Positions 1 through 60,198 of a stretch of 64,000 nt of DNA are shown in pieces. Position 1 is the stretch's first letter; every line of letters begins with the position of its first letter. The stretch lies in assembly GCA_964016885.1 (NCBI GenBank), contig OZ024758.1, forward strand, positions 3,782,001-3,846,000, in the 5' to 3' direction. The notes below the pieces were generated by a model. It was not told the origin of the DNA and did not search any database. It saw only the letters and a list, made by a program, of their open reading frames with translations. Position numbers and translations under genes: made by a program. The DNA is from Eledone cirrhosa (taxonomy: Eukaryota).

Positions 1-143
1 TCTCTCTCTCTATGTATATATATATATATATATATATATATATATGTATATATATATATATATATATATATATATATGTATATATATATATATATATATA
101 TATATAATAAACAAAAGATAGTTACTTTAGATCATCTCTCTTT

Positions 144-218
144 ATTTCATTATATATATTTCGAAGATGCAAGGCTTATATACAGCATTATCCAAATCAT
201 GTTCTCGTCAGACAAAAT
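144..218 (-). ncRNA. Type I minimal hammerhead ribozyme motif (Penelope-like pLTR type)
   Basis: Minus strand reads attttgt CTGACGA gaacatg..catcttc GAA ATATATAT A atgaaat. Stem I is 7 bp (2 GU), stem II base 6/7 paired, stem III palindromic, cleavage triplet AUA (H17 = 151). It lies in a unique segment between (TA)n arrays 11-107 and 290-316. Confidence 0.7.
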
Positions 219-765
219 GCATAGAAGATGCAGTTTTCTTTTGAGATACTGGCGGTCAAACGAGCTGGACAGATCGGTGACAACCAAGCATATATATATA
301 TATATATATATATATATGTGCTGGTTTCGTTAGGATTAGCTCTGAGATATGAAAATTGGCCAATGCAGGTAATATATATGACATGATCACATGACATCCT
401 CTGTGTGACACAAGGTTTGTCTAGGAAGTGATAATGTGAGCATGTGCTATAATATTTATATATATTTACCTATATGTATATCTGTCTAACTTCCTTTTTT
501 AAATATATGTTTGTCTGACAATCAAAATGTATCTCGAGTTGAAATGGGAGTAACACAAGTATATATATATTTATATATACGTACATATATACATGATGCA
601 ATCCACCTACTGTTCTACTACGGCCACTTTTTAGAACAAAAACTAGAAAATGATTCTCAAACACATTTATACCTATTTCTAATCAATATATCCACGATAT
701 ATATATATACCTATATGATTCTATAATACTATGTAATAACTTAAAGCAATATATATATATGTATG

Positions 766-895
766 ACGAAGGAAATGTGATAAGGAACCAGATGGACCAT
801 AATGCACCAAAGTACTCAATACTTAGGGTAATAGAGGTCCAGAATTAGCCGTTGAAACGACTGGAGCTCAGCCGTCGGGGTCCTACTCGTTCCTA
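766..895. mobile_element. Family A (TA)n-embedded short element, inverted 3' part joined to direct 5' part
   Basis: Matches the consensus ttagtccagaawtagccgtcGAAACggcttgagctcagccGTCggggtcctactcgttccta...ccttcgt; both ends abut TA repeats. Confidence 0.8.
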
Positions 896-2413
896 TATAT
901 ATATATATATATATATATATATATATATATATATATGTGTGTGTGTGTCTTTATATTGGCTAATAAGTGTAGTATTGCCTTTGCAAAGTATATCGAGGAG
1001 TTTGAAATGCCGACCAAGAGAATCTTCGAAGTAACTCATTTAATTCGTTTAAAATGTCGAAACCTTTATTTAGATTTGTCTGTTTTCTATATAACCTAAA
1101 TGTAACACATCTATGTGTGTGTATATATATATATACATATATATGTGTGTGTGTGTGGTGTGCTTGTGTGTGTGCTTGTGCGTGTGTAAATCTGTTGCAT
1201 TTGTGTGGGTGTGCGTGCGTGAATCTTGCATTTGTGTGTAGGCTTAATACTTGTAAAACCTCGGCCAGAACTGTAAAGTATGTATATCCACAGGCATAAT
1301 ATTTCCTCCTAAGACTAGTATTAGCTGCATAGCTTATGCAACAAGGGTGTAGTTTACGGGTCTGATTGAAGTACTAGAAACAGCAGCAACATCCTAAGCA
1401 AATTCTTTCCTATGGTCTTAAACATAGTAGAAAGTCTTTGTGGGTTTTTTTTTCTTCTTAACAAGAGGAATCGGTGGTGCGAAGGATCCCCTTTTCTTGA
1501 CCCCCAATGCTGGTGCTGAGAAGGGAAAATATATCTTTAAATTGGGGTCCTTGCCGAAATGCTTGCAACGGAGTGGATGCCACAAAGGGTTGTCAATTTT
1601 TAATTGATACGGTTAAAACATATTCCCGATTAAGTCTTCCTCTCAAGAAGACCATTGCTGGATTTGAACTTCGAAGATAAGAGCCAGATCAAATATAATC
1701 TGTCTTTACTTTTGTTCAAAGTGGGAGGGTGTTCAGCAGTGGAATGTCCTGCACGAAGATTAACAATAATAACACAAGGAATAAGAAAAGCACGAGCAGT
1801 ATATTAGAGCAAATATATAGCAAGTACTTTAGAAGCAAATAATAATTACAAGGATATCGCTGATAATGATGATTTAATATATTGAGATATAGCCAAGTAA
1901 TTTGTTTATATTAATCTGTTGTACATAACAGACGCTCTTTTCTTCCTCGCCGAAGTGTAAAGTTTTAAGTTCTATTTCGATTATGGCGAGAATTGTACTC
2001 GATACACCGAGGGTTCGTCGCCTCTACTTTGATGATAATAATGATTATTCTGTCTAAGATAGACAAGTTGAGTTGCAATCAATCGATAATATCAACCCAC
2101 TATATATTGACCAGCGGCATTATGAATCTCTAAGTTACCCTCGTCAGAATTTAAACAAAGAATGTAAGTAGCAAAAATAATTACTGAAACTTATTTTTCC
2201 GGTGCTCTACCGCTTTTTCTAACTCCCGCTTGTTATAATTGCTATCAAGATTGATCCGGTGACAGATATTTCCGTTGCAATTAACACCAGTCAGCAGATG
2301 TCAGTAATTTTAATAATATTCCTCTGAACTGATTTGAAACCAGGTTCTAAATTTCAGTTTCCTTAACTTTTCTCTAACTTACACTGTGGATATGAAACAG
2401 ATGTTTAAAATTA

Positions 2414-2582
2414 CCGTATTTCCCGGCGCCGAAGACGCTTCGTCCTCGAAGACGTACCCTAATTTTGACAACCAAAAATTTGTTAAAAACATAATAAACA
2501 ACCTTCGACCTCCAGGACGCCTGATAGATTTTTGAGAATTATTTTAGAAAAATAGTAGCGTCTTCGACGCCGGGAAATACGG
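2414..2582. mobile_element. Tc1/mariner/pogo-type MITE (169 bp)
   Basis: 26-bp TIR ccgtatttcccggcgYcgaagacgct (25/26 match); TA target duplication at 2412-2413 and 2583-2584. Confidence 0.85.
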
Positions 2583-3110
2583 TATGTTGTTCCAAATACA
2601 ATGAAAACTACCAGGAAGTACGTTTAGCTATAAAATCATTGCAAGCAACTGCACTAGTATAAGGATAACCATCACCAACATCACTAACTCAACCAACAAT
2701 ACAAATATCACTACTATAACAACTAACATCATTACTACGAACGCTACCACCACCAGTATGATAACTAATACCACTTATAACATCACATCCTTCACTAACA
2801 AAAATTTGACGCCCTTCTCTCACGGAATCATCTATACAACCCTTACAGAGTCCTCTCTAGATTTTGGTCTATATATATATATATATATATATATTATATA
2901 TATATATATATAATATATATATATATAATATATATATATATATATTATATATAATATATATATATAATATAATATAATATATATATATATATTATATAAT
3001 ATAATATATATATATATTATATATATATATATATATTATATAATATAATATATATATATATTATATATAATATATAATATATATATATATATATATATAT
3101 ATAGGGAGAG

Positions 3111-3304
3111 GGAGGTGAATTGGCAGTATCGGTACAACAGGGTCGGACGCTATTCTTTGCAGCATAGTTATTGACTTTTACGGTCTGCGCTCAAATCCTG
3201 CCGACGTTACCTTTGTCTTTCATCCTTACGGGGTCGATAAAATAAAGTACCAGTAATACACTGCGATAATTGCTGGCCTTGTGTCAAAAGTAAAAAGAAT
3301 TATT
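3111..3304 (+). mobile_element. tRNA-derived SINE (Nin/Deu-like domain), full length, short-tail subfamily
   Basis: A-box-like tggcagtatcggta, B-box-like tcaaatcc, central ctttcatccttacggggtcgataaaataaagtacca, tail ...aattatt; matches about 30 copies in the window. Confidence 0.85.
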
Positions 3305-58224: not shown

Positions 58225-58410
58225 TAATTGGCAGTATTAGTAGAGGATCAGACGCCATGCTTTGCAGCAAAGAGTTACGGCCCTTTATGGTCTGAGTTCA
58301 AATCCCGCAGAGGTTAACTTTGTTTTTCATCCTTACGGGGTCGATAAAATAAAGTACCAGTAATACACTGGCATAATTGCTGGCCTTGTGCCAAAAGTAG
58401 AGACACTTAT
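58225..58410 (+). mobile_element. SINE, full length, short tail
   Basis: Consensus match. Confidence 0.85.
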
Positions 58411-59212
58411 TTAAAACTTTAGACAATCTATACTAATGCTTCAGAATCTTGTAAAGCTGATTCATAATTTTATTATGGAAGTGTATAAGGAATAAACCAG
58501 CGTGAGCATTGTTTCTTTATATACATATTTTTGTTCTTCTCTAAATTGTAAACTTTAAAACACATGTAAAATGTTTGTTTTTTCTTATGCAAAGTGCGCC
58601 AGTAATGTTACAGTTGATCTCCGGGGACTCATGAAGTAATATTACATTACCACTCGCAGAAAAAAAACAAAAAAACTATTAGATTTTTTTACAACTCTTT
58701 CGTTACAAGGTCTGAATCAAGAGCGCTTCTTTCATTGTATATATATATTCAATTTAACTAAGATTTTATAATTGTTTACAACTTCCAATTAGTTTGTGAA
58801 TATAGCATATATTATTTAGGCACACACAGGGTGGTGAATAAGCAGTATCAGTTGATTATCGGACATGTTTTGAGGCCCAGAGATACGTCCCTTTCTAATT
58901 ATTCTAATTACAAATCCCTCTGAGGGTACATTTGCCTTTCATCCCTAATTGGGTTAATAAGATGAAGTACCAACCAGTAATACACTGTGATCATTTAAAA
59001 GTCCTTCCCTCCACTGACTGATTTGTGGGCCTTGTGGCTCGATCAGAAAGCATTATTATACACACGCATATATATATATATATATATATATATGTATATA
59101 TATATATATATATATATATATATATATATATATATATATGTATATATATATATATGTATATATATATATATATATATATATAAGATCAAAAGATGGTTAA
59201 AGGAGTTCCAAG

Positions 59213-59283
59213 TATTTTATTATGCGCATTTCAAAAACAAATATCATCATGGGATGATATTTGCGTTCTCATCAGATTAAATA
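59213..59283 (-). ncRNA. Type I minimal hammerhead ribozyme motif (family C)
   Basis: Minus strand reads tatttaat CTGATGA gaacgcaaatatcat-cccatg-atgatatttgttttt GAA ATGCGCAT A ataaaata. Stem I 7/8 paired, long stem II, palindromic stem III, AUA triplet (H17 = 59221). Confidence 0.8.
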
Positions 59284-59365
59284 GGAAGACATGATATGAA
59301 GCTTAAAAAACACTTGCGAGCAGTGAAGTGTTATATATATATATATATATATATATATATATATA

Positions 59366-59557
59366 TAGTAATACTAATAAATGTGAAGACTAAAATCCGA
59401 AGAGGGCTCGATAAAAATACATATATATATATATATATATATATATATATATATGAATATATATATATATATGAATATATATAAAAATCGTAGAACAGTT
59501 TCAGAAGAAAGGTGGAAGCAGCGATTCTTTGCTTAGGATTTAATCTGTTATATTAAT
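59366..59557. mobile_element. Family B copy, inverted 3' part plus direct 5' part
   Basis: Homologous to 60036-60198. Confidence 0.75.
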
Positions 59558-60035
59558 ATATATATGTATATATAGTATAAGAATAAATGAACAAAGAACC
59601 AGTATCGCATCATAACATATTTAATAACATATCACATATGTTTCACTGTCGATCTTGAACCTCTACACTTATATATATATATATATATATATATATATAT
59701 GTGTGTGTGTATGTATATATGTGTGTGTGTATGTATATATGTGTGTGTGTATGTATATATATGTGTGTGTATGTATATATATGTGTGTGTATGTATATAT
59801 ATATGTGTGTATGTATATATATATGTGTGTATGTATATATATATGTGTGTATGTATATATATATGTGTGTGTATGTATATATATATGTGTGTGTATGTAT
59901 ATATATATGTGTGTGTATGTATATATATATGTGTGTGTATGTATATATATATATATATATATATTTATTATATATTTGTCTTCCTCCGGTTGCAACGTTT
60001 TTGAAATATTCACTTCTGCGTTCAGATTGACTTTG

Positions 60036-60198
60036 TTAGTTTCAGAAGATCCCGTTAAGGGTGAAAGCAGCGATTCTTTGCTTAAACTTTAATCTGTTAT
60101 TTTAATAAATATTTGCTCTACAGTTCTTATATATGATATATATTTATCCTTATCGAGCCCTCTTTGGATTTTAGTCTTCAAATTTATTATTATTACTA
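60036..60198 (+). mobile_element. Family B collinear copy with a hammerhead-like fold at 60038-60088
   Basis: agttt CAGAAGA t-ccc-gttaa-ggg-t GAA AGCA..TGCT T aaact; ends tacta-(TA)n. Confidence 0.65.

Follow-up and report, generated by a model that had tools for sequence, protein, structure and literature searches.

Short head-to-head repeats in TA arrays of Eledone cirrhosa as likely products of Penelope-like elements

A stretch of 64,000 nt from the Eledone cirrhosa genome (GCA_964016885.1, contig OZ024758.1, positions 3,782,001 to 3,846,000; hereafter the window, 35% G+C) contains three families of short repeats, termed A, B and C, which lie between arrays of the dinucleotide TA and commonly consist of two arms placed head to head. 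This raises the question of (i) what kind of element these repeats represent and (ii) how their inverted layout arose. We consider it likely that all three families are products of Penelope-like elements (PLEs), of the size of a PLE pseudo-long terminal repeat (pLTR), and that they probably depend on Hydra-type enzymes encoded elsewhere. The feature is real. Most of it is already familiar from PLEs, apart from a variant in family A that lacks an explanation.

Repeat families at TA arrays and a model of two-site priming

Self-comparison of the window identified 13 loci of family A, resolved into 26 arms by alignment to a reference unit (20076-20215), as well as three loci of family B and two of family C, the latter with a relative at 107-289 (Table 1). 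These counts bear out those of the original prediction, which was made from the sequence of the window. Family A occupies 2186 bases, or 3.4%, of the window. The association with TA was assessed as the distance of each locus end to a run of (TA)4 or longer: such a run was present within 12 nt of 25 of the 26 family A ends and within 3 nt of 19 of them, while a SINE-like (short interspersed element-like) family of 22 copies, used as a control, gave 3 and 1 of 44 ends, and random positions gave 6.5% and 2.1%, respectively. Additionally, 12 of 12 locus ends of families B and C adjoined TA runs, and the enrichment of TA at the junctions, which had been proposed as a check, is thus confirmed. The proposal that the elements may help TA microsatellites to grow is unsupported, since an element adjoins only 30 of the 211 arrays of at least 12 nt. 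These 30 arrays are longer than the remainder (mean 29 nt versus 22 nt, p 7e-5), a difference that could stem equally well from growth or from targeting of long arrays, and 65 of the 88 arrays of at least 24 nt are without any element.

Arms of family A terminate at either of two 3' positions: unit position 60, which immediately precedes an internal TA, or position 140. A typical locus carries one tailed and one tailless arm, head to head, with a join that differs from copy to copy. This stereotyped inverted layout had been noted for many copies, and it holds in the window and in reads of the same species. The A loci that depart from it are 29946, which consists of a single arm, 30400, where both arms are tailless, and 14399, which is made up of four pieces. 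Four sequencing runs were mapped to positions 20056-20222. In the best-matching run 22,202 of 16.3 million contigs matched, and in a same-species restriction site-associated DNA (RAD) run 25,138 of 12.5 million reads did so; as RAD concentrates reads on few loci and the best run may be the source sample, these figures are not copy numbers. The share of family A in the reads, 0.2%, is well under its density in the window. Two runs of other organisms gave no matches to this interval, a result that proves nothing, and sequence patterns of family A had no matches in metagenome, prokaryote-genome and viral contigs. Within the RAD run, 3552 reads pass from the A element into (TA)n at 20138. Furthermore, 14 of the 15 listed joints in reads (of 22) connect opposite strands, all with one side at 20075-20088.

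We infer a model of two-site priming, in which a GIY-YIG endonuclease would nick both strands of a TA array. One nicked 3' end would prime reverse transcription at the end of the RNA tail and the other at the internal TA, some 80-95 nt upstream; both cDNAs would be extended to the 5' end of the RNA, would then acquire untemplated A/T-rich bases and would be joined head to head, giving rise to the variable join. In the case of family A, the template would start at a fixed AGTY in loop II of a hammerhead ribozyme, so that only the 3' half of the ribozyme would be copied. A precedent exists in a purified anole PLE, which nicks both strands, extends them and initiates at a pair of internal sites that delimit the tail (PMC11167929).

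The arms themselves bear on this model. At no fewer than six of the 13 A loci (at least those at 766, 18680, 19614, 21602, 29704 and 39737) and at two of the three B loci, the tailless arm carries sequence that is absent from the tail arm, and a simple fold-back copy therefore cannot explain those loci. This weighs against the alternative that the fixed 5' end of family A reflects cDNA fold-back, or stalling at stem II of the hammerhead, in the manner of the self-priming proposed for palindromes at inverted junctions of rotifer Penelope (PMC3846280). The A loci at 9498 and 19986 and the C copy at 30213 are also compatible with self-priming, and variants are common to both arms of a locus, in keeping with fold-back; conversely, single and non-overlapping arms end at the same AGTY with no 5' arm of stem II beyond it, and we regard fold-back as unlikely to account for the fixed 5' end of family A. 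Arms within one A locus are closer to each other than permuted pairs (0.128 versus 0.185; 0.24% of 5040 permutations, seven loci), and this likeness, largely a match of subfamily, suggests that one source at a time may have supplied a locus. Returning to two-site priming, many independent joins of family A would offer a large natural test of it.

Two further observations concern the internal end. Position 20132 (unit position 57), past the internal TA, is the start of five of the 14 listed opposite-strand joints and of two tail arms in the window, and could mark the collision of two primings or the alignment edge of the second subfamily. Just upstream of the A locus at 39737, a short piece at 39640-39709 with a GAAA hairpin ends in TTCTTTTCC before a TA array, like the internal end of family A.

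Table 1. Coordinates of family A, B and C loci, of the parts of the A reference unit and of the open reading frame (ORF) remnant in the window.
Feature	Position	Strand	Description
A reference unit	20076-20215	+	140 nt, with a fixed 5' end, the likely 3' half of a hammerhead, an end at the internal TA and an 80-nt tail
A 5' boundary TTAGTC	20076-20081	+	matches Drosophila initiator consensus TYAGTY; putative promoter role
A 3' half of type I hammerhead (likely)	20089-20125	+	stem II 3' arm, GAAAC, 6-bp stem III, GUC, stem I 3' arm; no CUGANGA
A tail	20136-20215	+	begins at internal TA; bulged hairpin ~20144-20169 like Hydra-clade tails
A locus	766-893		tail arm and tailless arm, non-overlapping
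A locus	9498-9682		head-to-head
A locus	14399-14651		four pieces, subfamilies mixed
A locus, second subfamily	18680-18819		non-overlapping arms
A locus	19614-19694		tailless arm and short tail remnant
A locus	19986-20215		head-to-head, join is an A/T run
A locus	21602-21795		head-to-head
A locus	29704-29897		head-to-head; private variants common to both arms
A locus	29946-30083	+	one arm, with tail
A locus, second subfamily	30400-30526		two tailless arms; sole MITE-like copy, symmetric, TA flanks
A locus	39737-39853		non-overlapping arms
A locus	49813-50014		diverged
A locus, second subfamily	56699-56895		head-to-head
Family B	21860-21996		inverted tail arm and truncated hammerhead arm
Family B	59368-59548		inverted tail arm, internal TA array, hammerhead arm
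Family B, longest copy	59965-60196	+	degenerate type I hammerhead (core 60043-60049, CAGAAGA) and tail
Family C head-to-head	30120-30352		both arms start in loop II; 30120-30212 likely tail, seen once
Family C	59183-59331	-	complete type I hammerhead, core 59269-59275, 12-bp stem II, palindromic stem III, one stem I mismatch
C relative	107-289	-	complete type I hammerhead, core 205-211
Decayed PLE ORF piece	47951-48817	-	reverse transcriptase thumb to GIY-YIG; between TA runs; no pLTR attached

Hammerhead motifs and the fixed 5' end of family A

All families had been described as carrying full or half type I hammerhead motifs. Those of family C and its relative are complete, while that of family B is degenerate and family A likely has only a 3' half. 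Searching the window with Rfam returned no hammerhead at gathering score (the weak matches, among the 150 of 446 listed, were all to microRNA-hairpin models), and a type I descriptor was passed only by the motif in 107-289. The stem III palindromes of family C and its relative differ at four positions and are both still self-complementary, with the caveat that AT palindromes come easily in a genome such as this one and that the comparison is of two sequences. In family B, stems I and III are present, CAGAAGA replaces CUGANGA and a U-U pair closes stem II at its base; given this core and closing pair, the B hammerhead is probably inactive. The hammerhead content of family A is confined to GAAAC, a 6-bp stem III and GUC, located where the geometry predicts. 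Shuffling the first 60 nt yields a half motif of this kind in 1.4% of cases, and shuffling the whole unit does so in 2.2%, the rate spanning 1.4-7.5% according to length and stem cut-off. Judged from sequence, family A likely carries the 3' half of a hammerhead, which would not allow self-cleavage in cis; with family B degenerate as well, the label of ribozyme elements in the original prediction is overstated.

The same data bear on the possibility that A, B and C are TA-targeting miniature inverted-repeat transposable elements (MITEs) of DNA transposons, with hammerhead-like motifs arising by chance, which had been named as the refuting alternative. The symmetric, TA-flanked A locus at 30400-30526 would suit such elements, as would the Rfam result and the shuffle rates. 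However, 12 of the 13 A loci are asymmetric or one-armed, family C and its relative have full cores as well as stem III palindromes that differ and still self-complement, and joins vary between copies, which in itself already largely refutes a MITE origin; we consider it very improbable. Palindromic A-type copies are nevertheless easily mistaken for MITEs or microRNA hairpins.

Separately from the three families, a palindromic insert at 30808-30930, seen in one copy beside a TA array, carries CTGATGA in its middle and resembles the C relative in its CTTC-GAA junction; it is possibly a fourth PLE-end family.

The 5' end of family A is fixed. Fourteen of the 26 arms start at unit positions 1-4, with no common sequence further upstream; 12 of these 14 begin with AGTY after 0-12 T residues and nine match TYAGTY, which is given as the Drosophila initiator consensus (PMC6483594). 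Reads display a single listed pile-up of ends, at 20075 (901 molecules, with a neighbouring depth of 1472). Penelope is known to possess an internal promoter, with an initiator, in its pLTR (PMC2377424), and TTAGTT is found at the start of stem I in the longest B copy. We infer that the AGTY end in hammerhead loop II is likely a transcription start served by a putative promoter, and the variable T run preceding it would fit untemplated A at the cDNA end. TTTAG as a splice acceptor, an idea derived from a D. virilis intron that ends at helix I, was dropped for family A as its copies keep TTAG. No account of a dispersed family with a fixed start inside a hammerhead was found in the PLE literature searched.

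An initiator-like 5' end fixed inside loop II would make family A either the short 5' product of an autonomous element or a SINE-like, non-autonomous PLE partner. In the first case, for which we see a real but less than even chance, the transcript of an autonomous Hydra-type element would start inside the 5' pLTR and be primed at the two sites, which would lie near the RNA 5' end; the priming mechanism would be the same as above, the source RNA alone being different. The internal promoter of the Penelope pLTR fits this origin, as do the reverse transcriptase (RT) start sites of the anole element, which lie 111-118 nt into its ORF, near the pLTR-ORF junction (PMC11167929), the description of solo pLTRs (PMC3846280) and one Hydra consensus which, by eye, opens with a tail-like motif before its ORF (PMC8557442). 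An autonomous parent should, however, also leave 3'-end copies running through the whole hammerhead, and these were seen in none of the 26 window arms. Loose ends upstream of family A in the reads agree just 0.42-0.6, and depth is maintained at ~94% from 20212-20217 into the TA run at 20218-20222, indicating that few A copies run on into an ORF. No head-to-tail partial tandems forming pLTRs around an ORF were found in the window, and the neighbouring loci at 29704 and 29946 are separated by a TA array.

In the second case, which we advance tentatively and hold to be somewhat unlikely, family A would be the SINE-like partner of a Hydra-type PLE: a 140-nt RNA polymerase II transcript made from the loop II initiator would have shed the catalytic half, thereby escaping self-cleavage, would have kept only the tail hairpin for two-site priming and would have its initiator rebuilt upon every insertion by untemplated A at the cDNA end. 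Were this so, family A could be the natural substrate strand of a two-piece hammerhead that is cut in trans by the autonomous partner. The original prediction had the families as non-autonomous elements mobilised by PLEs; the PLE origin, the TA targeting and the tail-plus-inverted layout are supported, and non-autonomy is plausible for family A. Two butterfly papers reportedly mention a non-autonomous Penelope.

Candidate enzymes and relation to described elements

The inverted arm with a tail is typical of PLEs (Craig et al. 2021, PMC8557442), and the Hydra clade described there, which includes Hydra-1_Obim of Octopus bimaculoides, is nearly all (TA)n-targeted and has canonical hammerheads; the protein motifs DKT, RWK and CxCX5C, with no CCHH, characterise it. 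Families A, B and C share with this clade the (TA)n target and, as in Penelope-13_HM, inverted copies truncated at the 5' end. They further seem to resemble it in a type I hammerhead motif (whole in C, degenerate in B and likely half in A) located close to the 3' end, in alternative 3' ends separated by ~80-100 nt and in a tail motif similar to that of Hydra-2_Amil and Hydra-2_Ajap. Stem I lies 10 and 90 nt from the two 3' ends in family A, 19 and 108 nt in B, and 30 and 123 nt in C. Of 23 Hydra-clade consensi, 10 place the 3' end 26-43 nt from stem I, two at 59-66 nt and 11 at 81-149 nt; the distances in A-C fit these values by a comparison of our own, which is no established criterion for the clade. 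The 23 come from 26 hammerhead rows, of which we set aside a motif at a 5' end, a duplicate in antisense and Penelope-2_NV, whose distance would be ~350. By eye, the tails of Hydra-2_Amil and Hydra-2_Ajap (supplement of PMC8557442) start with TATAT and contain a small bulged hairpin; a pattern written from these two consensi matched six times in the window, in five A tails and one B tail, with 0.15 matches expected. The tail hairpin that family A seems to have in common with the Hydra clade would be a candidate recognition element for TA-targeting PLEs. Unlike Hydra elements, the short families have no ORF, and family A lacks the 5' hammerhead half and has a fixed 5' end; by eye, the A, B and C hammerheads are also unlike the one in Hydra-1_Obim, and a search of the supplement for three short motifs of A and C gave no match.

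Several results weigh against Hydra-type PLEs as the source and against the reading of family A given above. No copy in the window joins A, B or C to an RT ORF, nor does any among the listed loose ends, so that the long copies linking the families to an RT plus GIY-YIG ORF, proposed as a check, were not found there; with no ORF joined to them, the families cannot be called autonomous PLEs, and may still be PLE products. Eight short patterns for Hydra-type protein motifs gave no match in the six frames of the window. The hammerhead half in family A shows no covariation in stem III above shuffles (20 arms), a lack of conservation or covariation in the cores having been named as a refuting outcome; the outer pair of this stem is broken in 10 of the 20 arms, and a competing hairpin that spans GAAA pairs no less well than stem III. 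TYAGTY occurs at 105 sites in the window and is a Drosophila consensus; being this common, the match at the A 5' end is to be taken as a lead. In the C copy at 30213, loop II is also where both arms begin, a position that suits self-priming by a hairpin better than a transcription start. Lastly, the tail pattern was written after both sets had been seen and fits family C loosely, and the A tail hairpin is weak (-4.4 kcal/mol, z -1.6).

A possible alternative source lies in the window itself. The decayed PLE ORF originally noted at ~48.1-48.8 kb is a real remnant between TA runs; it belongs to another PLE type and is unlinked to the families. One of its frames is interrupted by 27 stops, of which 15 fall within a stretch of triplet repeats, and ordinary searches with it gave no Pfam family and no longer homologue. 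An exhaustive search matched five proteins (best E 2.6e-7), two of which have sub-threshold GIY-YIG matches, and the long relatives of these matches carry RVT_1 and HTH_animal; against a profile of these relatives the remnant scored a probability of 98% (E 2.5e-13). The relatives have no CX2-5CxxC linker and are thus Penelope/Poseidon-like by layout. When 46 full-length relatives, together with 124 ORF pieces taken from 78 loci, served as tblastn queries, they matched only the 48 kb region of the window, a search that decayed RT of other clades could escape, no full Pfam scan of the window having been made. The remnant is a PLE insertion at TA in this genome and not evidence that its lineage moved A, B and C. 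That it did so is doubtful in our estimation: it is a genuine PLE piece with TA runs at both ends, yet no pLTR is attached, it retains a C-C-H-H endonuclease pattern that Hydra elements lack (PMC8557442), and blastn found no match to A, B or C among its wider relatives (78 loci). Near the ORF ends of three PLE relatives (L049:2253, L059:2050 and L024:2176), minimal type I hammerheads with a palindromic stem III were observed; these are unrelated in sequence to A, B and C.

Other described systems share much with the three families. Penelope and Poseidon (PMC3846280, PMC11167929) have head-to-head arms, a tail on one arm, solo pLTRs, two RT starts and an AT-rich target; their tails are 30-40 nt with variable 5' ends, whereas the tails of the short families here are 80-95 nt. 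Minimal PLE hammerheads (Cervera and De la Pena 2014, PMC4209133) occur mostly in truncated PLEs and as opposite-strand motif pairs 100-700 bp apart, as is the case here, and family C resembles them in its palindromic, dimer-type stem III, in contrast to the half motif with a 6-bp stem III in family A and the U4A core in family B. Non-LTR (long terminal repeat) retrozymes (PMC7229834; bioRxiv 10.64898/2026.07.22.740005) and MRC1 of Chlamydomonas (as described in PMC8557442) are short, non-coding, pLTR-derived and presumed to be PLE-mobilised, like A-C. Retrozymes, however, are head-to-tail tandems with a complete hammerhead per unit, while A-C are dispersed head-to-head inserts, family A without a complete ribozyme, and no tandem units each with a complete type I hammerhead are present among the window families. 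Cephalopod Naiad elements share the (TA)n target, and an 'HHR_half_core' is recorded for two cephalopod families (PMC8557442); this is the first core half, with the second far off, whereas family A likely keeps the 3' half. These Naiads are called long inactivated, while some A copies are 95-100% alike.

Since the layout, the TA target, the hammerhead and solo pLTRs have been described already (PMC8557442, PMC3846280, PMC11167929, PMC4209133), as have non-autonomous PLE derivatives, A-C constitute no new system. The annotation of O. vulgaris lists 190 Penelope-like families, amounting to 6.83% of the genome (PMC13282606; consensi at Zenodo 10.5281/zenodo.19138903), among which family A may already be catalogued. 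The families nonetheless bear on how PLEs form tails and inverted ends, and on the purpose of the hammerhead. The latter was dispensable for insertion in one in vitro study (PMC11167929), and the spread of an abundant family A with half a ribozyme would, if true, provide in vivo support for this.

Other elements of the window

The SINE-like family is ~200 nt long and comprises 22 loci (e.g. 27596-27815, 58211-58425 and 39948-40418), sometimes paired, with A- and B-box-like motifs. It is tRNA-like and resembles octopus SINEs, and the microsatellite load of the window likewise looks octopus-like. A literature search with two of its motifs returned nothing relevant, and no tRNA genes were found in the window. 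A MITE-like element with 28-bp terminal inverted repeats lies at 2412-2584, and at ~8680-9050 inverted ends with TTAACCCTTTA flank a 72-bp tandem repeat in an element that we take to be piggyBac-like. Two copies of a GC-rich element with short inverted ends (~20317-20475 and 16293-16362) each have a TA array at their end. Additionally, an inverted pair of ~75 bp (18913-18988 and 19058-19130) encloses a purine/pyrimidine spacer. Single-copy palindromes beside TA or TG runs, at 29125-29235, 30713-30776 and 27515-27572, could be inverted remnants of other families.

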